Positions 38,936 to 61,692 of a DNA stretch of 64,000 nucleotides are shown here, in pieces. How positions within the stretch are numbered: position 1 is the first letter of the stretch; the number at the start of each line of letters is the position of its first letter. Made by a program: the position numbers and the translations under genes. This DNA comes from an uncultured Actinomycetota bacterium. GTDB lineage: Bacteria; Actinomycetota; Acidimicrobiia; Spongiisociales; UBA5794. The stretch spans positions 296,773-360,772 of the forward strand of contig CAWIHT010000014.1 in assembly GCA_963836085.1 (NCBI GenBank). The letters run 5' to 3'. The notes beneath the pieces were generated by a model. It did not search any database, was not told the origin of the DNA, and worked only from the letters and a program-made list of their open reading frames with translations.

Positions 38936-38949
38936 ATCGATAATCGATG
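38936..38949. promoter_or_regulatory. Instance 1 of the recurrent direct-repeat motif TCGATAATCGATGA (candidate operator), ~50 nt upstream of the cupin gene
   Basis: gctatcgataatcgatgatcgg in the divergent intergenic region. The same 14-mer occurs at 45.37, 50.13 (reverse complement) and 61.65 kb. Confidence 0.4.
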
Positions 38950-39000
38950 ATCGGGAGGACCGGTGCACCCGGGACGTCTCGACGAACTGCGAGGTGCAGC

Positions 39001-39363
39001 ATGCTCAAGGCCGTCACGAGAGACGAAGCGGAACTGTTCGAACTCCCCGGACGAAAGTGGTACCACTACAGCGGACCGGCCCTCACCGGCGCCGAGCACC
39101 TGACGGTCGGCTTCGCCATCTTCCCCCCCGGTTCAGCGCCCGAAGGCCACGTGCATCCCACGCAGGAAGAAACGATCTACATCACGGCCGGTCACGGTGA
39201 ACTCGTGACGCCGGAAGGCACCGTTGCCCTCGAGCCCGGCACCACCGTGTTCATCCCGATCGGACTGCACCACGCGACCGTATCCAACGGCCCCGGCGAT
39301 CTCGAGATGGTGACCGCCTTCGGTCCACCGGTGGTCCCCGGTTCCTACGAAGACGACAAGTAA
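39001..39363 (+). CDS. Cupin domain protein
   Basis: Cupin_2 motifs G(X)5HxH…(PEGHVHPTQEE)…G…H (LHHAT). Confidence 0.75.
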   Translation: MLKAVTRDEAELFELPGRKWYHYSGPALTGAEHLTVGFAIFPPGSAPEGHVHPTQEETIYITAGHGELVTPEGTVALEPGTTVFIPIGLHHATVSNGPGDLEMVTAFGPPVVPGSYEDDK

Positions 39364-39389
39364 TCATCCAGCCACGGAGGGCACCATCG

Positions 39390-40262
39390 ATGACTGATAT
39401 CGCGACCACCTACTCCCCCGACGACATGGCGGAGTTCGCCCGCCAAGCGCGGGTCCGGATTCTGGAAGCGGTCAAACATGCAGGCGGCGGCCACGTGGGT
39501 GGCCCCTACTCCGCCTCCGACATGCTGGCTGCGCTCTACTTCGGCATCATGAACGTCCGGCCCGACGAGCCAGACTGGCCCGACCGCGACCGGTTCATCC
39601 TGTCGAAAGGACACAGTTCGATCGCGCTCTACACCATGCTTGCGCTGCGCGGCTACTTCCCGGTCGAGGAGCTCCTCACATTCGACTCGATCAACTCGCG
39701 TCTTCAGGGGCATCCGGACATGACGGTCACCCCCGGTGTCGACATGTCCTCCGGTTCTCTGGGACTCGGCTTCGCCGGTGCCCTCGGCATCGCCCTCGGC
39801 GCCCGAGCCGAAGGCCGCGACTTCACCACCTATGTGATGCTCGGCGACGGCGAATGCAACGAAGGCGTCGTATGGGAAGGCGCACACGTCGCCGCCCGCT
39901 ACGCACTCGACAACATCGTCGCAATCGTTGACCACAACAAGTTGCAGCAGTTCGGCTGGACCGGCGAGTCGCTCACCGACCGCATCACGCCGTACACCGG
40001 AACCCAACTCGCCGACCGCTGGCGGGCCTTCGGGTGGGAAGTCATGGAGATGGACGGCCACCACATCCCGGAAGTCCTCGAAACCCTCGCCGCCGCGCGG
40101 GACTTCGAAGGCGGACCGGTCGCCGTGATTGCCCACACCATCAAGGGCAAGGGCGTCTCCTACATGGAAGGCGACTACACGTGGCACAGCAAAGTGCCGA
40201 ACGACGAGGAATTCGCCCTCGCCATGGAAGAACTCGGTGAAGCCGAAGGAGGTGCGGCGTGA
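39390..40262 (+). CDS. Transketolase, N-terminal (TPP-binding) subunit
   Basis: GGHVGGPYSASDMLAALYF, GHSSIALY, GSLGLGF, MLGDGECNEG motifs of split transketolase. Confidence 0.9.
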   Translation: MTDIATTYSPDDMAEFARQARVRILEAVKHAGGGHVGGPYSASDMLAALYFGIMNVRPDEPDWPDRDRFILSKGHSSIALYTMLALRGYFPVEELLTFDSINSRLQGHPDMTVTPGVDMSSGSLGLGFAGALGIALGARAEGRDFTTYVMLGDGECNEGVVWEGAHVAARYALDNIVAIVDHNKLQQFGWTGESLTDRITPYTGTQLADRWRAFGWEVMEMDGHHIPEVLETLAAARDFEGGPVAVIAHTIKGKGVSYMEGDYTWHSKVPNDEEFALAMEELGEAEGGAA

Positions 40263-41206
40263 CAACGCTTGCCAAAGGGAAGTCCCTCCGCATGGCGTTC
40301 GGTGAGACGATCACCGAACTCGCGGAGACCGACAAGCGACTCGTCGTCCTCGACGGCGACACCGGAAGTTCCACCTACACATCGATCTTCGAAGCCGCGC
40401 ACCCGGACCGCTTCTTCCAGATGGGCATCACCGAGCAGAACATGCTCGGCATGGCCGCCGGAATGGCGACCCTCGGGTTGGTTCCGATCGTCAGCACATT
40501 CTCGTGCTTCATCGTGTCAAGGGCCCATGACTCGATCCGGGTCCTCATCGCGCAGCCGAAGGCCAACGTCAAGATGATGGGCGGATACGCCGGCCTGCTC
40601 GCAGGCATGACCGGCAAGACACACCTGATGTTCGACGACATCTCAATCATGCGAGCCATGGCCAACATGACCGTCGTTGCACCCGTCGACGAGGTCGAGA
40701 CCCGCAGCGCCCTCAAGGCAATCATGGAGTACGACGGTCCGGTCTACTTCCGGCTCAACCGTCCCGACACGCCGATCATCTTCGACGACGACTACGAGTT
40801 CGAACTCGGCAAGGCCGTCGTTGTTCGTGAGGGAACCGACGTGACCGTATTCTCCACCGGCACCCAGACGTCACGCGCCTTCGAGGCGGCCGAGGCACTC
40901 GCCGCTGAGGGCATCGACGTGCACCTCGTCCATGTTCCGACGGTAAAGCCACTCGACGTAGAGACCGTCGTTGCGGCTGCCAAGAAGACCGGTCTGGTCG
41001 TGACGACCGAAGAGCACACCGTGGTCGGCGGTCTTGGCGGAGCCATTGCCGAGGCGCTGGCCGTCAACGCCCCGACGCCCATGGTCATCCACGGGATCAA
41101 CGACGTCTTCGGCGAGTCGGGTCCCGACGGTCCACTCCTGGAGAAGTACGGTATCTCCTCGGAGAAGACCGCAGCAGCAATCAAAGGCGCCGTCGCCAAT
41201 CGCTAG
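40259..41206 (+). CDS. Transketolase, C-terminal (pyrimidine-binding) subunit
   Basis: Start overlaps the upstream stop (GTGA). Transketolase_C / Pyr domain motifs, e.g. FGETITELAE…GITEQNMLGMAAGMA. Confidence 0.9.
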   Translation: MTTLAKGKSLRMAFGETITELAETDKRLVVLDGDTGSSTYTSIFEAAHPDRFFQMGITEQNMLGMAAGMATLGLVPIVSTFSCFIVSRAHDSIRVLIAQPKANVKMMGGYAGLLAGMTGKTHLMFDDISIMRAMANMTVVAPVDEVETRSALKAIMEYDGPVYFRLNRPDTPIIFDDDYEFELGKAVVVREGTDVTVFSTGTQTSRAFEAAEALAAEGIDVHLVHVPTVKPLDVETVVAAAKKTGLVVTTEEHTVVGGLGGAIAEALAVNAPTPMVIHGINDVFGESGPDGPLLEKYGISSEKTAAAIKGAVANR

Positions 41207-41239
41207 CCACAAACCAACGACCTCTCCGAAAGGACACCA

Positions 41240-42022
41240 ATGAGTATCGACATGTTCAAGCTGGACGGGAAGGTCGTGATGATTCCGGGCGGGAGCGGCG
41301 GCATCGGCTCCGCTCTCGCGCTGGGAGTCTGTGAGGCCGGAGCGCAGGTCGCCGTGGTCGATCGCGACGGCGACGGCCTCGAACGCTCGTGTAGTCGCAT
41401 CCGTGCCGTGGGATCGGAGCCGCTCGCCGTTGCGGCCGACCTCACGACCAAAGAAGGCGCCGACCGTGCGGTTGCCGAGACCGTCGACCACTTCGGTCAC
41501 GTCGACGTCATCATCAACGCTGTCGGCGGCGGAGCCGGCAAGGTGCTCTTCGACGCCCAGGACTACCCCCAGCCGGAGTGGGACTGGATCATGGAGTTGA
41601 ACCTTCGCGCCACGCTGCTGCCAACCCAGGCCGCGGTCAAGGCGATGATCGAAGCAGGGAACGGCGGACGGGTGATCAACATCTCCTCGGTACGTGCGAA
41701 CCTCGGCATCAATGCGGGCTACTCCGCGTACGTCGCTGCGAAGGGCGCGATCAGTTCCCTGACCCGCCAATGGGCCACGGAGTGGGCGAAGTACGGCATC
41801 ACCGTCAACGCAATCGCTCCGACGTTCGTCGACACACCGCAGGTCGCGATGTTGCTCGAGGACCCGGACTTCAAGGCGGGCGTCGTCAATCGCATCCCGA
41901 TCGGACGGGTCGGAGAGCCCAGCGACCTTGTCGGGCCGGTTGTGCTTTTCGCCTCAGATGCGTCATCCTTCGTGACGGGTCAGATCCTCGGAATCGACGG
42001 CGGACTGACCGCAACGCAATAG
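41240..42022 (+). CDS. SDR family oxidoreductase
   Basis: GGSGGIGSA cofactor motif, NAVGG, catalytic YVAAKGA. Confidence 0.9.
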   Translation: MSIDMFKLDGKVVMIPGGSGGIGSALALGVCEAGAQVAVVDRDGDGLERSCSRIRAVGSEPLAVAADLTTKEGADRAVAETVDHFGHVDVIINAVGGGAGKVLFDAQDYPQPEWDWIMELNLRATLLPTQAAVKAMIEAGNGGRVINISSVRANLGINAGYSAYVAAKGAISSLTRQWATEWAKYGITVNAIAPTFVDTPQVAMLLEDPDFKAGVVNRIPIGRVGEPSDLVGPVVLFASDASSFVTGQILGIDGGLTATQ

Positions 42023-42043
42023 AACGAACAGAGAGGCCGCCCC

Positions 42044-42895
42044 ATGGAGAATGTCACACCCACCATCTTCACCGAGACCAAGGTCCGTGGATGCAACCCG
42101 AGCTTCGTCGTGACGTCAGACGGCGTCGTCATCATCGACACGCCGCAGTTGCCGACCAAGGCCGTTGAGATGCGCGAGATGGCGGAGTCCTACGGGACAC
42201 TCCGCTATCTGATCAACACCGAGCATCACGTCGACCACATCTTCGGCAATTACTACTTCAAGGGCGGCCCCACGGTCGTCCACCATCAAGGCGTCTACGA
42301 CAACTTCATGGTGGTCGGCCCGGAACTCGACCCGTTTGCGTACGCCAAGGAGGCGCTGCCGACCGACGATCCGGAGGGCGAAGCGATCTTCCCCGACCGT
42401 GACGTCTACTACTCGGATCCGAACAAGGGCCAGATCGTCTTCACGGGTGATCTGACGCTTCGCGTCGGCGATCACACCTTCGAGTTGCTCCACACGCCTG
42501 GTCACACACCGGGCCAGATCGCGGTGTACTGCCCCGAGGAGCGGGCGGTCTTCACCGGAGACACGATCTTCAGCGAGTGCCAGACATGGCTGATGACGTC
42601 GAACGTCGACGAGTGGCTCGCCGCCCTTGATCGAATCGGTGAACTCGATGTCGACTACGTCATCCCTGGACATGGCCCGATCACCACGAAGGCCTACCTC
42701 GCGACCCAGCGGGCGATGCTGATGGAGTGGAAGACGGCCGTTGCTGTCGCCGTAGCGAAGGGCTGGACGAGGGAAGAGACGGTCGAGCGAGTCGAGTTCA
42801 AGGACCGCTACCCGGTCGACATCGGCCAGGAGTACATGATGGACTACATCAACTCCTACAACGCCGGCTCCCTCTACGACAAGCTCACGTCATAG
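42044..42895 (+). CDS. MBL-fold metallo-hydrolase
   Basis: HHVDHIFG (HxHxDH) and downstream His/Asp ligands. Confidence 0.85.
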   Translation: MENVTPTIFTETKVRGCNPSFVVTSDGVVIIDTPQLPTKAVEMREMAESYGTLRYLINTEHHVDHIFGNYYFKGGPTVVHHQGVYDNFMVVGPELDPFAYAKEALPTDDPEGEAIFPDRDVYYSDPNKGQIVFTGDLTLRVGDHTFELLHTPGHTPGQIAVYCPEERAVFTGDTIFSECQTWLMTSNVDEWLAALDRIGELDVDYVIPGHGPITTKAYLATQRAMLMEWKTAVAVAVAKGWTREETVERVEFKDRYPVDIGQEYMMDYINSYNAGSLYDKLTS

Positions 42896-42930
42896 GGCCT
42901 GAGGTGGCCGGGGAGACTTCCTCCCCCACC

Positions 42931-44115
42931 GTGGCATGGCGCGGGGTGACGCCCGCGCTCGTGGCAACGATCGTCGCCATGCTGCCGAGCTTCCTGACCG
43001 CCGCGCTCATCGTTCAGATCGGCGATGACACCGGCCTGACGGTGACCGGGCTCGGCGCCGTCATCAGCCTGTTCTTCGGTAGTGCGGCGCTGGTGTCTCC
43101 GGCGGCCGGTCGCCTCTCGGAGCGGGTGGGGTGGGCGAACGGCCTCCGGACCTCAACGCTGCTCTCCGCCGTCGCACTCGGCGCGATCGGACTCCTCGGT
43201 AGCTCGGTCGCCATCATCGGGATCTCGCTCGCCATCGCGGGCGTCGGGAGTTCGCTCACACAGACGGCCTCCAACCACACGATCGCGCGATGCGTCGTCC
43301 CGCGTCGACACGGCTGGGTGCTCGGGATCAAGCATGCCTGCGTGCCGGCAGCGATGTTCATTGCCGGTCTCGCCGTTCCGACCGTCGCTCTGACCATTGG
43401 CTGGCGTTGGGCATTCGCCGTCGCCGCGGTTCTGGCACTCGCGACCACAGCGTCCATCCCACGGCACGAGGGTTCGCACACGCTCACACCCCCACCGACG
43501 AGGGCCGGCAGAGCTGTCGGGAGGCCAACAACTCCGCAGCACCTGCTGGTCGTGCTCGCGGTTGCGGTCGGCCTCGGCATCGGTGCGCTCGATCCGCTCG
43601 GATCGTTCTTCGTCAGCTACTCGGTCTCGATCGGCGTTGAGGAACAGATCGCAGGCATCCTTCTGTCAATCGGTGGACTCTGCGGGATCATCGCCCGCCT
43701 CGTAGCCGGACGGCTCATCGACCGGATGGCCCAGGCCGACTTCACGGTGATCGCCTCGATGATGGTGGCGGGCGCGCTCGGCATCGTCATCTTGAACCTC
43801 GGCGGCTACCCGGGCCTCCTCATCGGAGCACTGATCGGCTTCACCGCAGGCTGGGGCTGGTCGGGGATCTTCACGTTCGCGGTGGTGAAGGACAACCCGG
43901 ACGCACCCGCCGCTGCGTGGGGCGTTGCCCAGACCGGGAAGTTCCTCGGCGCCGCCGTCGGGCCGCTCGTGTTCGGCGTGGTCGCAGACCGGATCTCGTT
44001 CGACGCGGCGTTCTGGATGTCCACGGTTGCCCTCCTCGCCGCCGCCGGGCTGATCCTCTACGTGAGGAGTCAACGGCCTGCGATCCCTACGCCGCAGCCT
44101 GGGTCCGCTCTCTGA
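42931..44115 (+). CDS. MFS transporter
   Basis: 12-TM MFS. A GTG start at 42931 follows the MBL gene; the ORF-track start at 42727 is an over-extension. A paralog is encoded convergently at 44087..45289. Confidence 0.75.
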   Translation: MAWRGVTPALVATIVAMLPSFLTAALIVQIGDDTGLTVTGLGAVISLFFGSAALVSPAAGRLSERVGWANGLRTSTLLSAVALGAIGLLGSSVAIIGISLAIAGVGSSLTQTASNHTIARCVVPRRHGWVLGIKHACVPAAMFIAGLAVPTVALTIGWRWAFAVAAVLALATTASIPRHEGSHTLTPPPTRAGRAVGRPTTPQHLLVVLAVAVGLGIGALDPLGSFFVSYSVSIGVEEQIAGILLSIGGLCGIIARLVAGRLIDRMAQADFTVIASMMVAGALGIVILNLGGYPGLLIGALIGFTAGWGWSGIFTFAVVKDNPDAPAAAWGVAQTGKFLGAAVGPLVFGVVADRISFDAAFWMSTVALLAAAGLILYVRSQRPAIPTPQPGSAL

Positions 44116-45289
44116 GCAGCGCCACCGTCATCAGGACCGCACCGAGGGCGAGGGCGGCGCTCATGATGACCCATGCGGCGGTGAACGATGCCTCCGCCAC
44201 CAGACCGAACAACGCGGGGCCGGCTGCGGCACCGACGTAGATCCCAGTCATCGTGATCCCGGTCGCTGCGGCGGGAGCAGCAGGGTTCCGGCGGACGACG
44301 GCGAAGGTGAACAACCCGGACCAGCCCCAGCCGAACGTGAAGGCAACCAGCGAGCCAACAACAATGGCCGGATCGGATCCGATGGCGAGCAGCGCCATAC
44401 CCGCTGCGCCGAGGGCGAGGAACGTGGCGACCGTTGCCAGACCACCGGCCGTGCGTCGGTCGATCAACCACCCCATGATGAGGCGCGTGATGATGCCGAG
44501 CACGCTTCCGGCTGCGAGCAGGATTCCGGCCGCGCCCTCTCCGAAACCGACCTCGACCGCATAGGGGACGAGGAACGTGGCGAGTGCATCCATTCCGAAT
44601 ATCCCGAGCCCCGCGCCGATCGCCATCAGGACGAGGAGCGACATCGGTGAACTCCGAACCACTGGCGCGTCGCTCTTCTTCGACTCGTCACGCGCAACCT
44701 CATACGACTGAGGTGAACGCGGAACGAGAAGCACGGCCACAAGGGCGAGGCCCGCACACAACACGTAGACCCACTGCCATCCGAGCGGGATCGCCACAAT
44801 GGGGAGAGCAAGTCCGGCAATGGCAGTCGCCGCCGGAATCGCCCCATGCTTGAACCCGTAAGCCAAGCCCTGGTGCCGAACGACCGTGGTTCTCGCGATG
44901 CCGAGGTTCACGGCCGGGTGGGCGAGCGCAAGGAAGAGTCCCCCGATGACCGTCACAACCCCGAGCATCGGCACCGACTGCCCGAGGAGCGGGGTCAGCA
45001 GCAGCGTTGTGGCTGCGCCAAGGGCGGCGATCCGCATCGCCGGAGCCCAGTCCAGGCGTTCGACCAGCCGACCGAGACGCGACGAGGCGAGGGCCGACAT
45101 GCCGAAGAACGCCCCCACGATCAGACCGACGCCGGCCTCAGCGATGCCAAGAGAGTCGGACAGTTGGACGGCGAGCGCACCGGGGAGAAAGCCGGGGAGA
45201 ATGGCGACCGTGATCGTGATGATCGAGGCAGCGATCACCCTCCACTGGATGGCTGGTCCGATGGTCGATGGAGTCAGAGGCACGGCCAT
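44087..45289 (-). CDS. MFS transporter (paralog of 42931..44115)
   Basis: 12-TM MFS sharing FTFAVV..NP.APAAA.G…GAA.GP..FG.VA with the neighbouring gene. The 3' ends overlap by 29 nt. Confidence 0.8.
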   Translation of the reverse strand: MAVPLTPSTIGPAIQWRVIAASIITITVAILPGFLPGALAVQLSDSLGIAEAGVGLIVGAFFGMSALASSRLGRLVERLDWAPAMRIAALGAATTLLLTPLLGQSVPMLGVVTVIGGLFLALAHPAVNLGIARTTVVRHQGLAYGFKHGAIPAATAIAGLALPIVAIPLGWQWVYVLCAGLALVAVLLVPRSPQSYEVARDESKKSDAPVVRSSPMSLLVLMAIGAGLGIFGMDALATFLVPYAVEVGFGEGAAGILLAAGSVLGIITRLIMGWLIDRRTAGGLATVATFLALGAAGMALLAIGSDPAIVVGSLVAFTFGWGWSGLFTFAVVRRNPAAPAAATGITMTGIYVGAAAGPALFGLVAEASFTAAWVIMSAALALGAVLMTVALLRERTQAAA

Positions 45290-45364: not shown

Positions 45365-45378
45365 ATCTTCGATAATCG
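45365..45378. promoter_or_regulatory. Instance 2 of TCGATAATCGATGA motif between the divergent MFS and E1-alpha genes
   Basis: cttcgataatcgatgatacgg. Confidence 0.4.
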
Positions 45379-45470
45379 ATGATACGGATTCGGCCAGCCA
45401 AACACCAACGGAAGGGCCTGCGGATGCGGGCGCTCCAAGGCTCCCCCGCCGCCAGCCCGAGGAGGCGTCC

Positions 45471-46478
45471 ATGAACGATATTCGCGGTTCACGACCCGAG
45501 ATTGCAGACTCCGTCCGCCTGGACATGTACTCCGCCATGGTGCGGGCCCGGGTCTTCGAGAAGCGCACATACGACCTCTTCATGAGCGGACTCGTCAAGG
45601 GGACCACCCACCTTGGAACGGGCCAGGAGGCCGTCGCAGCGGGATTCGCCACCGCTATGCGCGACGACGACATGGTCTTCTGCACGTATCGGGGCCACAA
45701 CCACACCCTCCTTCGCGGTGCCCCCATGGACTCGCTCATGGGTGAACTCCTCGGGCGCGAGAGCGGGTGCTGCGGGGGCAAGGGCGGATCGATGCACCTG
45801 ACCGACGTCGAGCAGTACGCCATGGGCTCGTATGCCATCGTCGGGGCGCACCTCCCCGTCGCGGCCGGTACGGCCTGGGCGTCGCAGGAGCGGGGAACCG
45901 GGCAGGTGACCGTCTGCTTCTTCGGTGACGGCACCACCAACATCGGCGCCTTCCACGAGTCCCTCAACATGGCGGCCGTGTGGGGACTCCCCGTCGTCTA
46001 CGTGTGCGAGAACAACCTCTATATGGAATACACGCCGATCTCGTCGGTCACAGCCGTACCGAATCCGGCCGCTGACCGCGCAGCGTCCTACGGACTCGAC
46101 CGAATCATCGTGGACGGCAACGACGCGGACGCCGTGTATCGGACAGCCCTCGCCGCCCTCGGTCGGGCCCGCGCGGGCGACGGACCGTCTCTCATCGAGG
46201 CCCAGACCTACCGCCACCACGGACACTCAAGAGCCGACCCTGGCAAGTACCGCCCCGACGAAGAGGTCGCGGCCTGGATGAACAAGGATCCTCTGGTGAT
46301 CTACCGGGATCGGCTCGAGGGCATGGGCTTCGCAGCTTCCGATCTCGATCGCGTCGAGGAGGAAGCCAGGGCCGAAATCGACGCCGCCACCGAGGCCGCA
46401 AAGGCGTCGCCCGAACCTGGCGAAGCGGTCCTGATGACCGATCTGTGGGCCGATGGAGGTTCCTCATGGCGACGCTGA
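45471..46478 (+). CDS. 2-oxoacid (pyruvate/acetoin) dehydrogenase E1 component alpha subunit, TPP-dependent
   Basis: TPP-binding GDG…N region (FFGDGTTNIGAFHESLNMA) and the HGHS phosphorylation-loop equivalent YRHHGHSRADP. Confidence 0.9.
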   Translation: MNDIRGSRPEIADSVRLDMYSAMVRARVFEKRTYDLFMSGLVKGTTHLGTGQEAVAAGFATAMRDDDMVFCTYRGHNHTLLRGAPMDSLMGELLGRESGCCGGKGGSMHLTDVEQYAMGSYAIVGAHLPVAAGTAWASQERGTGQVTVCFFGDGTTNIGAFHESLNMAAVWGLPVVYVCENNLYMEYTPISSVTAVPNPAADRAASYGLDRIIVDGNDADAVYRTALAALGRARAGDGPSLIEAQTYRHHGHSRADPGKYRPDEEVAAWMNKDPLVIYRDRLEGMGFAASDLDRVEEEARAEIDAATEAAKASPEPGEAVLMTDLWADGGSSWRR

Positions 46479-47440: not shown

Positions 47441-47486
47441 GCGCCTGATCTTCGCCTCTGCCGTGTGTGTTGCCTCGGGCGTGTAC

Positions 47487-47558
47487 GTCTTCGCCTCTCC
47501 CACGCAGTGGGCGAGGCGCGAGCACCGGCCGCCAGGCCGGAGCGCAGCGGAGGGGGCT
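47487..47558 (+). repeat. Partial copy (B module) of the palindromic repeat family
   Basis: gtcttcgcctctcccacgcagtgggcgaggcgcgagcaccggccgccaggccggagcgcagcggagggggct. Confidence 0.7.
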
Positions 47559-50060: not shown

Positions 50061-50127
50061 GCGTGCTCCTTGTCCGCTCGGCCCCTTCTAGGCCGATTCG
50101 TTCCGGTGCGCATTGTAGGCACATTCA

Positions 50128-50141
50128 GATCATCGATTATC
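50128..50141. promoter_or_regulatory. Instance 3 (reverse complement) of the TCGATAATCGATGA motif. It overlaps the putative -35 of a TACAAT promoter for the Gfo/Idh/MocA gene and lies ~75 nt upstream of the PHP gene.
   Basis: +strand tcatcgattatcgt. On the minus strand: acgataatcgatgatctgaatgtgccTACAAT. Confidence 0.4.
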
Positions 50142-50212
50142 GTTTGTGTGGAATTGGCGGCGATTCACCGTGTACCATCCCCCTCGGCGGGCCACCAACC
50201 TTGAAGGGCACC

Positions 50213-51121: not shown

Positions 51122-51131
51122 CGGCGACACC

Positions 51132-53172: not shown

Positions 53173-53185
53173 GAGCAGTCCCCGC

Positions 53186-54076: not shown

Positions 54077-56325
54077 GACTCCTGCTCCCTCATGGCTTCC
54101 CACACTCGCTGGGGTGTCAGCGGCAGATCACGGATGATCAGCCCGGTGGCGTCGCGAACCGCCGCTCCGACGGCCGGCGCCGTGCACAACAGGCTTCCTT
54201 CGCTGACTCCCTTGACCCCGTAGGGCCCGGGTCCGTCGTGATTCTCGATACTCGCGCTGATCAACTCGATCGGCAGGTCCTTGCTGGTTGGGATCCGGTA
54301 GTCGATGGCGCCCAGATTCCTGGTGCGGCCCTCTTCGTCGAGGATGTATCCCTCCATCAGCGAGTGGCCGAGGCCCATGATCGCTGCGCCGTCGTCCTGC
54401 CCGTGCACCTGCTGCGGGTTGAGGGCGGTTCCGACGTCGCCGACGGTGACGTGCTTGATGATCTGGATCTCACCCGTCTCGTCGTCCACCGTTGCCTCGA
54501 TCGCCGTGCAGTTGAATTCGAAGAACGCTGCCGAACCCGCGAGCGGGTGGCCCGGCACCTTGTCTTTGCGCATCTCGCCGTTGCCGATGACTTCTCCACC
54601 GAGCGGCCCGAGCCCCGCTGTGACCACGTCCATGATCGGCAGGTCTTCGCCCGCCATTCGGACGACGCCTCCGTCGACCTCGATCTCGGATTCGTCCACA
54701 TCGTGGACCCTTGCGGCCATGGTCTTCACCTTGCCGTGCACGTCCTTACAGGCTCGGTAGACCGACGTGCCCATGAGGACCGTCGACCGGCTTGCGGATG
54801 TCTGCTGGTCGTAGGGCACGGTGGCCGTATCACCCATGATGACATTGACGTTCTCGAGGGGAATGCCCATCTCCTGCGCGACAATCTGCGCGAACACCGT
54901 CCTGGCGCCCTGGCCCATGTCGGACGTCCCGCTGAAGAGAATCGCACTGCCGTCGGCCAGCAGGCGGACCGTCGAATAGGACAGACCGGTCGTCGGACCG
55001 GACTTCAGTCCGAGCGCGACTCCACGGCCGTGACCCTCGGGGAGTGGCGTGTCCCAGCCGATCAGTTCCGCGGCCTTGTCGATCGTCTGCATCCACTCGC
55101 CGTCGGCAGGTGTGTCTCCCGGCACGAATTCGTAGCCCTTTTCGGGGATGTTGCGACGTCTGATCTCGAACCGGTCGATGCCGAGTTCGAGCGCGGCTTC
55201 GTCCAACGTCGACTCACGAGCCCACGTGATCTGGGGAACGCCAAATCCGCGGAATGCGGTCGTCGGTGCCGTATTCGAGAGGATCGTCCTCCCGATGATC
55301 TTCACGACCGGGACCTTGTACGGGCCGGCCGCCACATAGGACGACTTGCTCGCGACACGATCTGCGATGTCGACGTAGGCGCCAATGAGGTAGTTCGTCT
55401 CGATGTCCTTGAACACCATGATGCCATCGTTGGTCAACCCCATCCGAACGCGAACACGGGTTGACGGACGGCGCACGGCCTGGAAGGTCTCTTCGAGCGA
55501 CATGATCAGCCGGACCGGCCGTCCGGTCTTCAGCGCCATGTAGCAAACCAGCGGTTCGAGCTTCGGATGCTGCTTGCCTCCGAAACCGCCACCGGGATCC
55601 GGAGCGAAGACCCGCAGCTTCGACAGCGGGATGTTGAGCAGCTTTGCGAGCGTCTTCTGGAGCTGGAATGGATGCTGGATCGTGCTCCAGACATTCAGTT
55701 CATCGCCGTCGGGCTGCGCGATGAACGCATGCGGTTCGATGGCGAAGTGGGTGATCATCGGGAACTCGTACTCCCGCTCGATCACGAAGTCCGCATCCGC
55801 TTCGACGTCCGCGATGTCGCCCCAGCCGAAGTTGATCTCGGTCTTGATGTTCGTGTTCGCGAACGGTTCACCAACCCGCAGCGACGGGTCTTGCACGAGC
55901 GGAGCATCGGGGGCGAGCGCCGCATCGATCGTGTGGACGTTCGGCAGCACCTCGTACTCCACGACCACGGCGGCAGCGCCTTCCTCGGCGGCCTCCTTCG
56001 TGTCGGCGGCCACGGCGGCCACCGGCTCGCCGTGGTAGTTGACCGTACCGACCGCCAGGACCGGTCGGTCCTGATACTGAGGTCCGAAGCGCGGCATCGG
56101 CGTCGGCAGGTCGTCAGGGGTCATGACGAGCCGGACGCCCGGCACCTGCTCTGCTTTCGTCGTGTCGATCGAGATGATCCTTGCCTTCGACTCGTCGATT
56201 GTGACGAGCTTGGCGTGGAGTTCGTCAACGAGATGGACGTCTGCGACGTACTCCTGCGCGCCGGTGACGCGGTCGCGGCCGCCGACGCGGTTCGGCGAGG
56301 ATCCGACGAACGTGTTCGATGTCAT
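54073..56325 (-). CDS. Xanthine-dehydrogenase-family molybdopterin-binding large subunit (CoxL/XdhA-like)
   Basis: ATG at 56325 (MTSNTFVGSSPNRVGGRDRVTGAQEY). AFRGFGVPQ motif, Ald_Xan_dh_C and C2 domains. The ORF-track N-terminal extension to 56676 is antisense/overlap read-through. Confidence 0.9.
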   Translation of the reverse strand: MTSNTFVGSSPNRVGGRDRVTGAQEYVADVHLVDELHAKLVTIDESKARIISIDTTKAEQVPGVRLVMTPDDLPTPMPRFGPQYQDRPVLAVGTVNYHGEPVAAVAADTKEAAEEGAAAVVVEYEVLPNVHTIDAALAPDAPLVQDPSLRVGEPFANTNIKTEINFGWGDIADVEADADFVIEREYEFPMITHFAIEPHAFIAQPDGDELNVWSTIQHPFQLQKTLAKLLNIPLSKLRVFAPDPGGGFGGKQHPKLEPLVCYMALKTGRPVRLIMSLEETFQAVRRPSTRVRVRMGLTNDGIMVFKDIETNYLIGAYVDIADRVASKSSYVAAGPYKVPVVKIIGRTILSNTAPTTAFRGFGVPQITWARESTLDEAALELGIDRFEIRRRNIPEKGYEFVPGDTPADGEWMQTIDKAAELIGWDTPLPEGHGRGVALGLKSGPTTGLSYSTVRLLADGSAILFSGTSDMGQGARTVFAQIVAQEMGIPLENVNVIMGDTATVPYDQQTSASRSTVLMGTSVYRACKDVHGKVKTMAARVHDVDESEIEVDGGVVRMAGEDLPIMDVVTAGLGPLGGEVIGNGEMRKDKVPGHPLAGSAAFFEFNCTAIEATVDDETGEIQIIKHVTVGDVGTALNPQQVHGQDDGAAIMGLGHSLMEGYILDEEGRTRNLGAIDYRIPTSKDLPIELISASIENHDGPGPYGVKGVSEGSLLCTAPAVGAAVRDATGLIIRDLPLTPQRVWEAMREQES

Positions 56326-56798
56326 TCCTTCCCCGCCTTCGCGGCCACGAGGACCGCCTCGGTGATCTGCAGGTACCCGGCGCAACGACAGAGGTTCCCG
56401 CCGAGAGCCTCGTGTACGTCGTCGATCGTCGGGTCTGGATTGCTCTGCAGCAACGCGTGTGCCGACATCAGCTGTCCCGGGATGCAGAACCCGCACTGCG
56501 GGGCGCTGACATCGAGGAACGCCTGCTGGAGCGCACTCAGGTGCCCGTCGACGGCAAGTCCTTCGACACTGGTGACATCCCGTCCGTCGACTTCGACGGC
56601 GAGCATGAGGCACGAGTTCATCGGGATGCCGTCGACGACGACCGTGCAGGCCCCGCACTCGCCAACCACGCAGCATTCTTTGGTGCCGGTGAGTCCGAGT
56701 TGGTCGCGAAGAACGTCGAGCAGGGTGTGGTTCGGTGCAACCTCAAATGAGCGATCGCGCCCGTTGATGGTTGCTTCGATCTCAATCAGTTCGCTCAT
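56322..56798 (-). CDS. (2Fe-2S)-binding small subunit of molybdenum hydroxylase (CoxS-like)
   Basis: CVVGECGACTV plant-type and CGFCIPG…CRCAGY second 2Fe-2S motifs. Confidence 0.9.
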   Translation of the reverse strand: MSELIEIEATINGRDRSFEVAPNHTLLDVLRDQLGLTGTKECCVVGECGACTVVVDGIPMNSCLMLAVEVDGRDVTSVEGLAVDGHLSALQQAFLDVSAPQCGFCIPGQLMSAHALLQSNPDPTIDDVHEALGGNLCRCAGYLQITEAVLVAAKAGKE

Positions 56799-57667
56799 GA
56801 CACTCCTTGCAGTTCCTGCAGGCGCTCGATGGCCCTGCGGATGGCCCGGGCGCCGAGCACCCGCAACATCGCCTGTCGATAGTCCGGACTGGCCCGCATC
56901 GAGCGTACCGACGGACTGGCGTCGGCGAAGATCTCCTCGAGCACCTCGGCCTTGGCCTCCTTCGAGGCCGCGGGATCCGCGAGCACACCGGTATCGTCGG
57001 TCCGGAGGAAGGCACGGGGCCCCACGCTTCCGAACGCAACCTGGGCGACACCGGCGTCGTCGACGGTTGCGCAGAGCGTCACCGATGCCAGGTCCGTACC
57101 CTTTCTACGCGTCATCCGCTCGTACGCGCCGCCGAGCATCCGCGTCGGCGTGGTGAGCTCCAGAGCGATGGCGAGTTCGCCCTCCTGGAGATCGGTCTTC
57201 CCTGGGCCGACAATGAAGTCGTTGATCGGTATGCGGCGCTGTCCGCTGGGACCGGCCACCACGATGACCGCTTCATACGCCAGGAGCGGAGGCGCGGTGT
57301 CGGCCGCGGGTGAGCCGTTGCAGATGTTGCCGAGCAGGGTCGCCCGGTTTCTGATCTGCACCGAACCGACCACGACCGCTGCCTCGACGAGTGCCGGGAA
57401 GTGCTTGTTGATCCCCGGGTCATTGACGATCTCGGTCATCGTTGCCGCGGCGCTCACCGTCAACGTGTCTCCGTCCCACCTGAGGGTCGGGTACAGCTCG
57501 ACGATCCGCTTCAGGTCGACGACGACCTTCGGCTGGCGGTACCGGTCCCGCATGGCGATCACCAAGTCGGTTCCGCCCGCGAGAATCTCGGTCTCCGAAC
57601 CACTCGCAGCAAGCACCTGAAGCGCCTCGTCGAGCGACTCAGGACGTTCGTAAGAGAACTCCTTCAT
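56795..57667 (-). CDS. FAD-binding medium subunit of molybdenum hydroxylase (CoxM-like)
   Basis: FAD_binding_5 (AGGTDLV) and CO_deh_flav_C domains. Confidence 0.9.
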   Translation of the reverse strand: MKEFSYERPESLDEALQVLAASGSETEILAGGTDLVIAMRDRYRQPKVVVDLKRIVELYPTLRWDGDTLTVSAAATMTEIVNDPGINKHFPALVEAAVVVGSVQIRNRATLLGNICNGSPAADTAPPLLAYEAVIVVAGPSGQRRIPINDFIVGPGKTDLQEGELAIALELTTPTRMLGGAYERMTRRKGTDLASVTLCATVDDAGVAQVAFGSVGPRAFLRTDDTGVLADPAASKEAKAEVLEEIFADASPSVRSMRASPDYRQAMLRVLGARAIRRAIERLQELQGVS

Positions 57668-57688
57668 GTCGTCACGCTTTCTCGATTG

Positions 57689-58576
57689 TCAGATGACCTT
57701 GTCGACCTCATCCATCAGCGCCTGCGGATTGGCGGCACGAATCATGTAGAACTTGCGGGGACCGCAGAAGCTCTCTGTGAAGTCGGCCCGCGCTTGGCGC
57801 AGCGCCTCGGTGTCCGTCAACGGCATCGTGTGGCCCGGTGCCAGCAACTCGTTGGTGAGGAAGTAGTTCTGGAGTGAGTGGAAGTTCTGGAATTGTGCCT
57901 CGAACTGACCGAGTTCGGAGGTCGTCGGATCGAAGTTGCCGTCGATAGCGGGAACGATGACGATATCGACGTTGCTCGGCTCGTCGTAGTCCTCCCACGT
58001 CGGCATTTCGTCACCGAAGAAGATCTGGGCGCCACGCTCGGGAGCGGCCTTGTCGGCCCGCTCGGTGCCCTTGGCCCGGCTCTTGATGAAGACCGTCTTG
58101 GATCCCATGATCACGGTTCCGGTCTCGTCGATCACCGTGGTCTCGGTGGAGACGAGCTTCCCGCCGCGCCGGCAGGCTTCGATCTGGCACATGCTCTTGC
58201 CGTGGTTGGATTCTCCGCCGAGGAACAGGACCGTCTTGCCCTGGTAGCGCACGGCAGACGAGTGGAACGGATGCAGGCCCTCGGCCTCCATGCGCAAAGC
58301 GAGCACGGTGACGATCGCCTTCTGGATGGGGCCCTCGGCCCAATCGCCGTCGAAGCGCATCGTCGTGCCGTCCCACGTAACCGACTTCTCGGTTGCGTCG
58401 CGGTCCCAGACCAGATCCGGTTCGCTGAGGATGGAATCGGGCTCGAGCGTGACGTCAGCGAGGCGGTAGTTCATGAAGTCCATGTTCTGGAGCACGTGCT
58501 CGGGAACCTCGGAACCGACGACGTCGATCCGAATTCTCGCGGTGCTGGCCGACATTTCCTCGGTGAGCATTGCCAT
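57689..58576 (-). CDS. HPr-kinase/phosphorylase C-terminal-domain-like P-loop protein (stand-alone)
   Basis: FHSSAVRYQGKTVLFLGGESNHGKSMCQIEACRRGGKLVSTE aligns with the HprK_C P-loop pattern (H-G-x-V-x3-G-x-V-L-h-x-G-x-S-x2-GKS-x3-E-x3-RG-x-LV). GGAGAG lies upstream of the ATG at 58576. Confidence 0.55.
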   Translation of the reverse strand: MAMLTEEMSASTARIRIDVVGSEVPEHVLQNMDFMNYRLADVTLEPDSILSEPDLVWDRDATEKSVTWDGTTMRFDGDWAEGPIQKAIVTVLALRMEAEGLHPFHSSAVRYQGKTVLFLGGESNHGKSMCQIEACRRGGKLVSTETTVIDETGTVIMGSKTVFIKSRAKGTERADKAAPERGAQIFFGDEMPTWEDYDEPSNVDIVIVPAIDGNFDPTTSELGQFEAQFQNFHSLQNYFLTNELLAPGHTMPLTDTEALRQARADFTESFCGPRKFYMIRAANPQALMDEVDKVI

Positions 58577-58800
58577 GGTGTTCTCTCCTCAATCGGTTGT
58601 TCGTTCTCTGTGTCATCAATCCGGGCGGCACGAGGGCTCCCGGCAATCGTGATGGATCGTTCGGCCCTTCGGGGGGCATATCAGGTGCCGATCACCCGGA
58701 GGACCCTCGTCAAGTCTCGGTTCCGCGGCGCCTCATCGCTCCCGGGGGTTCTCGTTCCAGCAGTCGGCGCCGCTCCTCCCCGTGATCTCTCGGAGTGTTC
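58577..58800 (-). other. 224-nt GC-rich, hairpin-rich intergenic leader inside the operon (between GntR and the HprK-like gene)
   Basis: No ORF longer than the cut-off; contains several inverted repeats (e.g. cccggg…cccggg, gggagccctcgtgccgcccgg). Possible attenuator, processing site or cis-regulatory RNA. Confidence 0.3.
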
Positions 58801-59493
58801 CTATGCCTCAACCGTCTCCTTGCGCACCTGGTCGATGCCCTCGATGAGAACCGCAGCTTCGGCAGCGTGCTTGCGGCTCAGGTCGGCAGCGAGTTCGGGA
58901 TCTTGGTCCCGTATGGCTGCGAGCAATGGCTCGTGCCGCTTCGAGAGCCAGTGCAGATCGATGCCGGGCGCAGAAGCCGTGATGTAGGTCCGCGAGAACG
59001 GTTCGAGCATCGACCACTGCCGCTCCAACGTCGGATTGTGCGCTGCCGCAATGATTCGGGCATGGAACCGGGTGTTGTTGAGCGCCTGGTCGTGAGCATC
59101 GCCCCGATCGGCCGCCTCGTCCATGGCCTCATACAGCATTTGGAGGTCGACGATGCATTGTTCAGTGCGTCGCTCTGCGGCCAGTCGGCCACCCAGCGCC
59201 TCGAGTTCAGCGCGTACCTCGATGGCCTGCGTGAGCTCTTCGCGGGTGGGCTTGCGGACCCGGGCTCCTTTGTGGGGTTTCATCTCGACGAATCCGAGGA
59301 TCGCCAGGTCGCGGAGCGCTTCGCGCACCGGAGCTTGACTCACGCCCAGTTCGCGGGCGACCCGGGTCTCGACGATGCGAGACCCGGGCGCCAGCTCTCC
59401 TTCGAGAATCCACGTGAGAATGCGGTCTTTGACCCCTTCGGAGAGCACTTCTCTCGTCACGGGTGCGGACTGATTCTCTTGCAGATTCGTCAT
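58801..59493 (-). CDS. GntR family transcriptional regulator (FadR/FCD-type C-terminal domain)
   Basis: N-terminal wHTH (RIVETRVARELGVSQAPVREALRDLAILGFVEMKPHKGARV) and an all-helical FCD C-terminal domain. Confidence 0.9.
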   Translation of the reverse strand: MTNLQENQSAPVTREVLSEGVKDRILTWILEGELAPGSRIVETRVARELGVSQAPVREALRDLAILGFVEMKPHKGARVRKPTREELTQAIEVRAELEALGGRLAAERRTEQCIVDLQMLYEAMDEAADRGDAHDQALNNTRFHARIIAAAHNPTLERQWSMLEPFSRTYITASAPGIDLHWLSKRHEPLLAAIRDQDPELAADLSRKHAAEAAVLIEGIDQVRKETVEA

Positions 59494-59530
59494 ATCAACT
59501 CTCAGGTCCTTCTGGGACCTGCTCCTATCG

Positions 59531-61282
59531 CTAGAGGATCTCTACGACACCATTCGTACCGTCGACCCGCAGGCGGTCGCCGGTCTTGATCTCGCGGGTG
59601 GCGACACCGGTGCCGGTGACACCCGGAATGCCGAACTCGCGAGCCATGACGGCGGGGTGCGCAACCATACCGCCGGCGTCACACACAATTCCGCCGATGA
59701 TGGCGAACACCGGCGTCCAGGCCGGGTTGGTCATCTGGCAGACCATGATGTCGCCCTGCTTCAACTGGTCGAACTCGGCCGGTGAGGAGACGACTTTCGC
59801 CACGCCCTCGATGACGCCTGGCGAAACGCCGATGCCTTCGATCCTGCCCTTGGTCTCGGTGTCGTGACCAAGCTTCTCGGGGAAGCCCCAGAGGTTCAGG
59901 TAGGGGAACTGCAACTGGTCTTCAGTCGCCGTGCCGATGAAGTCTGGCGGGCGGATCATCTCTTGTTCGGCGCGCAGCGCCCGGCGCTCGGCGACGATGC
60001 TCTTGGCCTCGTAGCCCTCCGGATCGCCCATCAGATAGCGCAGCTCGTTGTAGCGGAGGAACATGACGTCGTCCGCCTCGGTCAACGCGCCCATCTCAAC
60101 CAGCTTCCGACCGATGCACATCAACACCACACGAGTGTGCTGGTGCGTGCCCTGGTCGATGTAGAAGTGGTGGTCCGGAGTGAGCGGGGCCATCTTCAGG
60201 TTGATCTCGTTCGCTGCCTTCAGGGCCTCGAGGGCGTCGCCCTCTTCGATCCCCTCGAGGAGCTCCTCGGCCGCGGCCTGAATATCCGTCGCGAGATGCG
60301 CAACGATCGGGCGATGGTCGTAGTCGGAGTCGAGGTAACCCTTGATCACGTCGAGGACCGGTTCCGGCGTCTCGAACCGTGACGGGTAGATGAACTCGTG
60401 GCTCCAGACGGCGTGCCAGCCGAACTCGCGCTGGTAGACCTTCAGGCCGGACTCGATGAAGTCGCGCCCTTCCTCGGTCGCTTCGAGTGCTGCCAGGATG
60501 TCGGCGCCGGCCTCGTTGGCGAATGCCGCCATGAGAACGGGGTCGGCCTTGATCCGATCCTTCAGGTTGACGAGCAACTCGATCGCATCCCAGTTGCGGT
60601 CCGAGGACGAGTTCTGCAGACGGCCGAGGATCTCCTCGTGCTTCTGCGTGATCTCGCCGCCGAGCGCCTCTTCGAGCGTGGCGCGCAGCGCCAGTGTCGA
60701 CGAGAGCTGCGCGAAGTTGAGCATCCAGTGGATCTTCCAGTGGCGATCGAGCATGTCGATCGCGTCCTCGAGAACCACGGCCCACTCCATCAGCGAGATA
60801 TTCTCGTAGTCGTCGATCTTCTCTTCGAGATAGGCCAGATTCCGAGCCATCTCGGGGACGAGGCGATCTCGCCACCAGTCGGGGAAGTTGGCTCCGTAGA
60901 CGGGGAGCACGGCGCCGAGGTAGGCACCGATCTTCTCTGCGTAGTCGGGATCGGCATCCGTCGGCACACGCGGCGAGTACGTAAATCCGAGTTGGACGGT
61001 CGGGACGACCATGTCCGCGTCCGCTGGGATGGCGGCTGTGAACAGGTAGCCGTTGACGACCTTGCCGATCCAGTCGGTCGCGAACGGCGTACCGAAGCGA
61101 CGGAACATGTGATCACACGTGAGCACCCAGTTGCCGATGTCGTCATACATCGGAGAGACGGGGCGCGGGCAGTGCAGATCGTCGTAGACCCAGAACAGCT
61201 TCTTCTCTTGCTCCGATTCCCAATCAACCGGGAAACTCTCGTCTCCGAAGAACTCCGCTACAACCTTGCTGTTATCTGCCAT
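59531..61282 (-). CDS. PEP-utilizing-enzyme family protein: ~500-aa uncharacterised N-terminal domain plus C-terminal swivel phosphohistidine (mobile) domain; no ATP-grasp domain
   Basis: The C-terminal ~90 aa match the PEP-utilizers mobile domain (GDIMVCQMTNPAWTPVFAIIGGIVCDAGGMVAHPAVMAREFGIPGVTGTG), with the catalytic His present but the preceding Thr replaced (VAH instead of TSH). ATG at 61282 (MADNSKVV…). Confidence 0.65.
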   Translation of the reverse strand: MADNSKVVAEFFGDESFPVDWESEQEKKLFWVYDDLHCPRPVSPMYDDIGNWVLTCDHMFRRFGTPFATDWIGKVVNGYLFTAAIPADADMVVPTVQLGFTYSPRVPTDADPDYAEKIGAYLGAVLPVYGANFPDWWRDRLVPEMARNLAYLEEKIDDYENISLMEWAVVLEDAIDMLDRHWKIHWMLNFAQLSSTLALRATLEEALGGEITQKHEEILGRLQNSSSDRNWDAIELLVNLKDRIKADPVLMAAFANEAGADILAALEATEEGRDFIESGLKVYQREFGWHAVWSHEFIYPSRFETPEPVLDVIKGYLDSDYDHRPIVAHLATDIQAAAEELLEGIEEGDALEALKAANEINLKMAPLTPDHHFYIDQGTHQHTRVVLMCIGRKLVEMGALTEADDVMFLRYNELRYLMGDPEGYEAKSIVAERRALRAEQEMIRPPDFIGTATEDQLQFPYLNLWGFPEKLGHDTETKGRIEGIGVSPGVIEGVAKVVSSPAEFDQLKQGDIMVCQMTNPAWTPVFAIIGGIVCDAGGMVAHPAVMAREFGIPGVTGTGVATREIKTGDRLRVDGTNGVVEIL

Positions 61283-61643
61283 ACGGCAAATCTCCTTCCT
61301 CGACGGACCTCCGCCGGGACCGGCCCGCAACGGGCACAATCAGACTCCGACGCTCTTGTGCGTTCTTTGAGATAGCCGACTTCTGTGTTGGTGCTCCTCT
61401 CGCTACGTCGGTCGGACCGACCCGAGGCGAAGCCCTCGGAGGGCACGGCGCGCTCGAGCCTTCAATACGGGTGGTGCGGGCATATCGAGGAGGGCGACGG
61501 CAACCATGCTCACATCCCCAACACCGCTGGAAACCCAGGCGAAACAAAGAGAATCCGCCGGACGGTCGCTGGGACCGGGAGGGGCGTCACCGAGAGAGCC
61601 ATCACCATGGCACGGTTGTTCTCGACACCTGCACGCATCATCC

Positions 61644-61692
61644 TCGATAATCGATTACTTGCAGTTTACGGCCGAGAATCGCGATCCGTCAA
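61644..61692 (-). promoter_or_regulatory. Candidate sigma-70-like promoter (TTGACG-18-TAAACT) with instance 4 of the TCGATAATCGAT motif immediately downstream of the -10 (operator-like). It drives the PEP-utilizer/Mo-hydroxylase operon via a ~360-nt leader.
   Basis: Minus strand: aagTTGACGgatcgcgattctcggccgTAAACTgcaagTAATCGATTATCGAgg. The +strand motif tcgataatcgatta is at 61644..61657. Confidence 0.35.

Follow-up and report, generated by a model that had tools for sequence, protein, structure and literature searches.

The question raised by this locus is whether a short motif that recurs in the promoter regions of an oxidoreductase gene cluster is the binding site of a regulator, and if so of which one. 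The cluster occupies 38-64 kb of a 64,000-nt stretch of contig CAWIHT010000014.1 (assembly GCA_963836085.1), which comes from an uncultured Actinomycetota bacterium and is called the window hereafter. A first-pass annotation of this stretch had pointed out a 14-nt motif at four promoter regions and proposed it as the operator of a repressor or response regulator. Our analysis demonstrated that the motif is non-random, conserved, fixed in position relative to promoters and found together with a regulator gene and with the cluster itself. On comparative sequence evidence, the TCGATAATCGAT motif is very likely the operator of the GntR/FCD repressor encoded within the cluster at 58801-59493 (minus strand; 230 aa; Pfam).

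A recurrent motif in four intergenic regions

The 14-mer TCGATAATCGATGA was found exactly at 38937-38950 (+) and 45369-45382 (+) and with one mismatch each at 50130-50143 (-) and 61644-61657 (+), in agreement with the four places named in the first-pass annotation, the starts of which were 0-4 nt off. Searching with up to two mismatches returned these four loci and no further match in the window, and dinucleotide-preserving shuffles gave 0.5 expected matches at this threshold, with six or more matches in 0/100 shuffles. The 11-nt core CGATAATCGAT has four exact copies in the 64 kb, at 38938, 45370, 50132 (-) and 61645, and no other exact copy. A weight matrix 22 nt wide, built from 127 sites of other genomes only, scored the four loci at 25.4-34.7 bits and everything else in the window at 7.2 bits or less, while 50 shuffles of the window gave a maximum of 17.0 bits and a mean of 8.4. 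Each copy lies between Pfam-supported genes (4/4), which bears out the earlier description of the copies as intergenic, and the motif is indeed A/T-rich relative to its surroundings, with A or T at 10 of its 14 bases in a window of 63-67% G+C throughout. Similarity between the flanks of the four sites ends beyond approximately 18 nt, indicating that these are short sites and not copies of a longer repeat.

Site 1 (TCGATAATCGATGATCGG, 38937..38954; 26.8 bits) lies between the minus-strand C_GCAxxG gene (gcaxxg) and the plus-strand cupin gene cupin1, and site 2 (TCGATAATCGATGATACG, 45369..45386; 33.0 bits) between a minus-strand MFS transporter gene and the plus-strand E1-alpha gene (e1a). Site 3 (50126..50143; ACGATAATCGATGATCTG on the minus strand, 25.4 bits) separates the minus-strand Gfo/Idh/MocA-cupin2 genes from a plus-strand PHP-luciferase-like pair. 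Site 4 (61644..61657; TAATCGATTATCGA on the minus strand, 34.7 bits) stands upstream of the gene for a phosphoenolpyruvate (PEP)-utilizer protein (pep) and starts 5 nt after the -10 box.

The conserved core of the motif is 14-15 nt long, TCGATAATCGATTA(T), and the full cross-genome consensus is the 18-mer TCGATAATCGATTATCGA, which is matched at 16/18 positions by site 1 and at 14/18 by sites 2-4. In the weight matrix the near-invariant block reads A-T-N-ATCGAT-N-ATCGA or, on the other strand, TCGAT-N-ATCGAT-N-AT, the form present in the window; conservation within the core is lowest at the two N positions (matrix positions 6 and 13), which are the spacer centres, and the core is flanked by a weaker TCG and, at its opposite end, a weaker NGAT. 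The layout is therefore one of TCGA half-sites at a 7-bp period, TCGA-N3-TCGA(-N3-TCGA), in a 4-3-4 geometry. As TCGA is self-complementary, the motif combines a tandem heptamer with overlapping palindromes (TCGATNATCGA, TAATCGATTA), with TCGAT-A-ATCGA and TAATCGATTA as its palindromic readings. The tandem heptamer of the first-pass annotation was thus right with respect to the 7-bp TCGA repeat and incomplete in that the motif is also palindromic. A literature search with literal sequences (TAATCGATTA, TCGATAATCGA, ATAATCGATTAT and TTATCGATAA) returned primers and unrelated matches only.

Conservation of the motif in two phyla

An alignment of 28 GntR orthologs was scanned against one genome per species, giving a regulator-first sample of 78 loci (L002-L079), of which approximately one third were from Acidimicrobiia/Actinomycetota and the rest from Chloroflexota (Limnocylindria-type), with GntR proteins of 49-90% identity. 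The core was present in almost every locus. Within four mismatches of the 18-mer, 165 sequence windows were found in 1.35 Mb, compared with 0.5 expected from composition. Footprinting of orthologous promoters, the check that had been proposed for the motif, found sites scoring 18 bits or higher in 69 of these 78 loci, all of which carry a GntR ortholog, and the sites stand upstream of the same genes; seven of the nine site-less loci were contigs cut inside or just before pep, the first gene of its operon.

Tblastn searches with the window proteins showed that the same blocks recur across these loci, namely e1b-e1a divergent from pep-gntR-unk295-fad-(fer2)-moL-cyc-adh, then mbl-sdr-tktC-tktN-cupin1, and an ABC transporter. 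The merged sites, 130 in number, most often preceded pep (35), an ABC permease gene (19), cupin1 (19), e1a (11), sdr (8), gntR (6) and a glyoxalase gene (3), and one of them lay inside a homolog-annotated gene. Sites were concentrated 2-4 kb upstream of gntR, which corresponds to the pep promoter, with none within the operon, and where gntR was detached from pep (L010, L015, L061, L074) a site was found 120-132 nt upstream of gntR itself. A separate coding test of 131 sites (the 127 from other species and the four of the window) placed 27 in coding sequence, which made up 82% of bases according to a crude open reading frame (ORF) caller that errs towards too much coding sequence; at least 79% of the sites are hence located in no more than 18% of the sequence, the non-coding part. 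The equal frequency inside coding regions that the first-pass annotation had named as speaking against an operator was not observed.

The reverse approach started from the motif, by collecting 120 stretches of metagenome contigs with TATCYTCGATAATCGAT and examining the neighbours of each match. Low-GC matches (54/120) had a credible cluster homolog in no case and were consequently regarded as chance matches. For the 66 high-GC matches (>58% G+C), cluster genes stood directly beside the motif in approximately 52, and a GntR ortholog was present on the same, often short, contig in 21; among high-GC stretches of at least 8 kb it was present in 12/16. Several of the remaining high-GC matches preceded aldehyde dehydrogenase genes (two), a gene for a SIS-domain protein and an E1 gene, which may be further regulon members in other genomes.

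Both samples support the candidate regulon of the first-pass annotation, which had linked the molybdenum (Mo)-hydroxylase operon, E1 alpha/beta, a cupin and a Gfo/Idh/MocA oxidoreductase, and they show that this list was too short. The regulon also takes in the split transketolase-SDR-MBL-MFS genes, the C_GCAxxG gene, the PHP/luciferase-like genes and an ABC transporter outside the window. Since regulon, regulator, operator and promoter layout are common to two phyla, transfer of the whole unit between them is suggested.

The arrangement of sites was variable between genomes, as Chloroflexota promoters often had two sites 77-135 nt apart (for example L054:6537+6614, L058:7331+7409, L057:7885+7962 and L069:3911+4004) and the window sites are single. 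One site of such a pair was of the ATCGAT(C/G)ATCGAT type and the other of the TCG(G/A)(T/C)AATCGATTATCGA type. A second GntR of 50-52% identity was located beside gcaxxg in L096, L147 and L188. Such pairs could be bound cooperatively, serve DNA looping or belong to two paralogous GntR proteins.

Position of the sites relative to promoters

Two fixed registers were observed between the motif and its promoters. At class 1 promoters (pep, gntR and some ABC transporter genes), TTGACG-N17/18-TAnnnT is followed after approximately 5 nt by TAATCGATTATCGA; a TTGACN-N16-19-TAnnnT element ending 4-10 nt upstream was found for 79 cores, with a peak 7-8 nt from ATCGAT, in comparison to 8/2900 random positions. 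At class 2 promoters (cupin1, e1a, sdr and some ABC transporter genes), TTGACC-N17/18-TATCCT directly abuts CGATAATCGAT (46 cases, the -10 being mostly TATCCT), and the conserved TATC(C/T) flank of the motif is accounted for by this -10 box. Alignment of 13 pep promoters from the two phyla left as invariant the TTGAC, the TA of the -10, the 12-nt ATCGATTATCGA and one isolated spacer base. In Acidimicrobiia with divergent e1a and pep, a single site lies between two facing promoters and would cover both start points. These are the positions of a repressor.

Site 4 is an exact class 1 fit, TTGACG-N18-TAAACT-GCAAG-TAATCGATTATCGA, where the promoter of the PEP-utilizer operon (61663..61692, minus strand) consists of TTGACG at 61692-61687, an 18-nt spacer and TAAACT at 61668-61663, and the site falls at about +1, as the earlier annotation had it. 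This was the sole promoter with support from the scan, as a strict sigma-70-type search returned nothing at sites 1-3. The candidate promoter at site 2, TAGACC-N18-TAATCT, was read by eye and ends 1 nt before the CGAT of the site, a loose class 2 fit; at the 11 orthologous E1-alpha sites of other loci a TATC(C/T)T -10 box abuts the motif. Site 3 covers the -35 position of a minus-strand TACAAT box (50116-50111), again a promoter read by eye and consistent with the earlier description. It is kept at position 19353 in L001, a 136-kb metagenome contig with an identical GntR protein and 97% DNA identity to window positions 48803-64000. Site 1 is centred about 56 nt ahead of the cupin start codon (ATG at 39001), and in 17/19 Chloroflexota cases an orthologous site with the orientation of site 1 is found 47-79 nt upstream of cupin1.

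A fifth operator, ATAGATAATCGATTATAT, lies just past the right end of the window (L001:3068-3085; also L002:3422 and L003:3288), between the glyoxalase-FAD-Fer2-Mo operon of a second Mo-hydroxylase and a divergent ABC transporter operon.

A perfect microsatellite, (CGCCAGT) x 3.6 at 61705-61729, lies close to the PEP-utilizer promoter, on the upstream side of its -35 box.

The GntR/FCD regulator

The protein encoded at 58801-59493 has a GntR winged helix-turn-helix domain at residues 17-79 (PF00392; 57 bits against a cut-off of 27) and an FCD domain at residues 91-210 (PF07729; 81 bits against a cut-off of 24.3). Its relatives in the PDB are all FCD-type GntR proteins, the closest being 7xp0 (E = 9e-26, residues 15-213), and no NCBIfam model of a named regulator reached its cut-off on this protein, the best being phnR_burk with 100 bits against 271. 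Protein searches returned many orthologs of 64-95% identity from uncultured bacteria which, where named, were Acidimicrobiia or Actinomycetota. In the alignment of 28 orthologs the helix-turn-helix and recognition-helix region R39-R61, including SQAPxREALR, is near-invariant, and this constancy of the DNA-reading part fits an unchanged operator. Histidines H144, H187 and H209 of the FCD domain, candidates for metal or ligand binding, are invariant in the same alignment, with H144 aligned to a histidine of 7xp0.

This gene was the sole regulator found among the Pfam-scanned genes of the 38-64 kb cluster and in the 20 kb of L001. A response-regulator operator was rejected on the same gene sets, since no Response_reg or histidine-kinase domain turned up in the Pfam scans of the 38-64 kb genes or in the genes listed for L001. 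The only other regulator among the scanned window ORFs was a TetR gene at 19326-20075, far from the sites. Between the GntR and TetR proteins that had been put forward as candidate binders, co-occurrence in two phyla supports GntR, and TetR was set aside, as the nearest site is 18.9 kb away from its gene and no matrix match above 7.2 bits occurs outside the four loci of the window.

We infer GntR binding, repression, stoichiometry and an effector as follows. A GntR dimer would sit on two TCGA half-sites 7 bp apart (TCGA-N3-TCGA), and a third half-site 7 bp further on, which completes the 18-mer, would allow a second dimer or stronger binding. Bound on or just after the -10 box and over the transcription start, the protein would block RNA polymerase until a small molecule, possibly a substrate or intermediate of the pathway, occupied the FCD domain and released it. 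Such release would turn on at least five transcription units together: the PEP-utilizer/GntR/Mo-hydroxylase/cyclase/ADH operon with the regulator included, the E1 alpha/beta genes with a divergent MFS gene, the cupin/transketolase/SDR/MBL/MFS operon with the divergent C_GCAxxG gene, the Gfo/Idh/MocA-cupin genes with the divergent PHP/monooxygenase pair and, outside the window, the second Mo-hydroxylase operon and the ABC transporter. As the GntR gene lies in the operon controlled by site 4, it would regulate itself.

Several observations weigh against a GntR repressor as the binder. Its assignment to the sites is drawn from co-localisation and conservation. Because the regulator-first loci were selected for carrying a GntR ortholog, part of the co-occurrence follows from the sampling itself, a bias that the motif-first scan, with its many short contigs, corrects only in part. 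Two loci with a GntR ortholog (L007 and L034) have neither a site nor the cluster, the promoters read by eye at sites 2 and 3 are weak, and at site 1 neither a -35 nor a -10 is convincing. The data comprise the 64-kb window and stretches of up to approximately 20 kb, and sites elsewhere and a wider regulon are possible.

Most operators of the FadR subfamily are marked by GT/AC dinucleotides (PMC4494728). Their absence from the motif is a further point against the assignment and would agree with a different reading, in which the motif is the operator of a transcription factor encoded elsewhere and the GntR gene is just another regulon member. The long motif-first contigs L089, L126 and L182, which have cluster genes and no GntR gene on the stretch, point the same way. 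We nevertheless consider this improbable, as neither the 38-64 kb cluster nor L001 contains another regulator gene and as motif and GntR gene occur together in two phyla, the gene retaining its own site where it is detached from the operon and encoding a near-invariant DNA-reading helix.

Somewhat less likely still is that GntR binds the motif as an activator or in a dual role, in the manner of E. coli FadR, which both activates and represses. Site 3 lies at the -35 of its putative TACAAT promoter, and the -35 boxes at sites 1-3 are poor, either of which can mark an activator-dependent promoter. Most orthologous promoters, however, have a good TTGAC -35 and a TAnnnT -10 with the site over the -10 or start, an occluding position that argues for plain repression.

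It is very improbable that the motif is not bound by protein and is instead a promoter part or a 5' transcript hairpin, for although GATAAT resembles a -10 box (the scan gives TCGACA-N18-GATAAT on the plus strand at site 4) and the motif is palindromic and partly transcribed, it stands about 5 nt after, or abuts, a separate conserved -10 and so cannot be the -10 itself, its fourteen near-invariant bases go far beyond the need of a promoter element, and the possible RNA stem is only 4-5 bp with no Rfam match. The two fixed registers of the motif relative to separate conserved -10 boxes likewise led us to reject GATAAT as a simple -10 box.

Comparison with known GntR-family operators

The pairing of a GntR winged helix-turn-helix with an FCD domain is shared by FadR, PdhR, LldR, GlcC and ExuR/UxuR. 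The canonical repressors of this subfamily follow the same logic as the GntR repressor proposed here, which is likewise a local catabolic regulator, probably controls its own gene and has a symmetric, A/T-rich operator close to the promoter. Their canonical operator is TKGT-N3-ACMA, and additional half-sites lying 7-12 nt away from the centre are a frequent feature (PMC4494728). The sites of the window have the same 4-3-4 geometry with a TCGA half-site in place of TKGT/ACMA, whereby GT/AC is missing; no GT/AC pair was found at the half-sites in the matrix of 127 sites, and the canonical boxes are not seen. This does not exclude membership of the protein family, as BioR (TTATMKATAA) and NanR (direct repeats) are documented subfamily members with non-canonical motifs (PMC4494728).

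BioR of the alpha-proteobacteria binds a GT/AC-free, A/T-rich palindrome centred on MK, of which TTATCGATAA is an allowed form (PMC4494728). Site 1 contains CTATCGATAA, a 9/10 match, and the consensus contains TTATCGA. BioR differs in its taxa and in its biotin regulon, and the motif described here is 14-18 nt long and 7-bp periodic. A BioR-type regulon was tried and rejected, since the motif fits only partly and no biotin synthesis or transport gene occurs in the regulon. NanR of E. coli, an FCD-type GntR repressor, has a tandem (GGTATA)3 operator, comparable to the up to three TCGA half-sites observed here at a 7-bp period, and three NanR dimers bind the triple-repeat operator cooperatively (PMC8012715). 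The NanR repeat unit is a different one and is not self-complementary, and its effector and regulon are unrelated to the present cluster.

The similarity to 7xp0 is modest (E = 9e-26). This entry and 7xp1, both deposited as 'Probable transcriptional regulator', are probably PmiR of P. aeruginosa, as suggested by a QQEGD segment in the alignment. PmiR belongs to the FCD-type GntR proteins and responds to a metabolic intermediate, and its DNA recognition is reportedly unlike the FadR consensus (PMC9728974). The DNA motifs reported for PmiR are different from ours and GC-rich.

Gene content of the proposed regulon

The operon downstream of site 4 (52129..61339, minus strand; Pfam) is transcribed in the order PEP-utilizer, GntR, unknown 295-aa protein, FAD, 2Fe-2S, Mo, cyclase and zinc-dependent alcohol dehydrogenase (Zn-ADH), an order shared by most of the 78 regulator-first loci. 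Its genes are those of the PEP-utilizer/Rph-like protein (59531-61339), the GntR regulator, a P-loop protein of unknown family (57689-58576; 295 aa, no significant Pfam match), the FAD subunit (56795-57667), the 2Fe-2S subunit (56322-56798), the Mo large subunit (54073 to about 56325), a cyclase-family hydrolase (53186-54103) and the Zn-ADH (52129-53226), all on the minus strand and, except for the P-loop protein, assigned by Pfam.

The PEP-utilizer protein resembles only the C-terminal two-thirds of rifampin phosphotransferase (Rph)/PigC/RedH-type enzymes, and has their substrate-binding region and phosphohistidine swivel domain without the ATP-grasp part. The 295-aa protein, found beside gntR in most loci, has an invariant GGESNHGKS P-loop; it gave no significant Pfam, NCBIfam or single-sequence PDB match, and its profile matched weakly the P-loop region of an ATP-dependent PEP carboxykinase (1j3b, E = 0.003). 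As the PEP-utilizer protein has no ATP-grasp domain, this neighbour may supply ATP binding as its partner. The leader of the PEP-utilizer gene (61340-61656) is approximately 300 nt in this lineage, compared with 60-200 nt in others, and a known riboswitch or RNA family in it is argued against, as searches of the window with Rfam (gathering thresholds) and ARAGORN detected no RNA.

The operon downstream of site 1 (39001..44115, plus strand; Pfam) encodes cupin1 (39001-39363), a split transketolase N and C (39390-41206), an SDR (41240-42022), a metallo-beta-lactamase-fold protein (MBL; 42044-42895) and, as its last gene, an MFS transporter ending at 44115. The order cupin1-tktN-tktC-sdr-mbl with the motif upstream recurs in both regulator-first and motif-first loci. 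Divergent from site 1 is the gene for a C_GCAxxG_C_C redox protein (38277..38762, minus strand; Pfam), and in the Chloroflexota contigs L096, L147 and L188 the motif stands ahead of a gcaxxg-gntR pair; the C_GCAxxG gene is a probable regulon member.

Downstream of site 2 are the E1 alpha and beta genes of a TPP (thiamine pyrophosphate)-dependent 2-oxoacid/acetoin-type dehydrogenase (45471..47440, plus strand; Pfam), with no E2 gene adjoining them. The MFS transporter gene divergent from this site (44087..45289, minus strand; Pfam) is, from its position, a possible regulon member. On the minus-strand side of site 3 are the Gfo/Idh/MocA oxidoreductase (49050-50060) and cupin2 (48697-49038), both from Pfam and the L001 gene calls, and on the plus strand a PHP-family (HisJ-like) phosphatase (50213-51121) and a luciferase-like monooxygenase (51132-51968), both from Pfam and NCBIfam. 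A second Mo-hydroxylase large subunit runs off the window end (62116..64000, minus strand; Pfam, L001 genes) and is the last gene of the glyoxalase-FAD-Fer2-Mo operon, the promoter of which is outside the window; this operon is probably a regulon member. The ABC transporter of the cluster belongs to the branched-chain-amino-acid (HAAT) type and has a Peripla_BP_6 binding protein.

None of ten cluster proteins tested against NCBIfam reached the curated cut-off of a named model, and a literature keyword search for the gene combination found no paper. The operator may mark a complete, horizontally shared regulon of an undescribed catabolic pathway, a tentative reading to which we give slightly less than even weight. 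Its core would be a two-part small-molecule kinase, composed of the PEP-utilizer protein of approximately 600 aa and the 295-aa PEPCK/HprK-like P-loop protein, along with two molybdenum hydroxylases, the cyclase-family hydrolase, the E2-less E1 alpha/beta, the split transketolase and the HAAT-type ABC importer. If this is correct, the GntR effector would name the pathway substrate, and the motif would provide a handle for finding the pathway in uncultured Acidimicrobiia and Limnocylindria.

On its own, a local repressor-operator pair is routine and an ordinary kind of bacterial switch. In this region the 14-18 nt motif and the GntR gene delimit which oxidoreductase genes act together, and the same genes have been retained under common control in two distant phyla of soil and freshwater bacteria, most of them uncultured. 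Regulator and operator together would offer an experimental entry to the pathway through the ligand that releases GntR. The 127 sites in other species and the motif-first contigs also make a well-populated example of a FadR-subfamily operator without the GT/AC signature.

Other features of the window

Several genes appeared in pieces or truncated. The PEP-utilizer (8210-9963) and Mo subunit (13166-15426) genes are split in L001 and intact in the window, where the PPK2 match at 24346-24909 covers only the first 102/229 profile positions and the GH94 match at 25719-27530 is without most of the supersandwich domain. These are either pseudogenes or assembly frameshifts. A DUF222/HNH-endonuclease protein (10502-11899, plus strand) is of a kind common in Actinomycetota and fits the actinobacterial origin suggested by the relatives.

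A GC-rich intergenic repeat with a conserved core of approximately 73 nt (AGCCCCCTCCGCTGCGCTCCGGCCTGGCGGCCGGTGCTCGCGCCTCCCCCAC..CGTGGGAGAGGCGAAGAC), including a hairpin of about 10 bp, is present both in dispersed copies and in a tandem array (period 186, 3.8 copies, 99% identity). Copies were located in the window at 48000-48698, ~6440-6510, 47486-47558 and 61751-61960, and in L001 at 7530-7741 and 17392-17487. It looks like a repetitive extragenic palindrome (REP) or miniature inverted-repeat transposable element (MITE) and is unrelated to the operator. Between E1-beta and cupin2 there is a minus-strand ORF with a DUF559 (Vsr-like endonuclease) fold (47563-48153; PF04480, E = 3e-32), the 5' end of which is overlapped by the repeat array (48000-48698, minus strand). 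As repeat copies are present on both sides of this ORF (47486-47558 and the array), the ORF and its flanking repeats may constitute a small mobile cassette.

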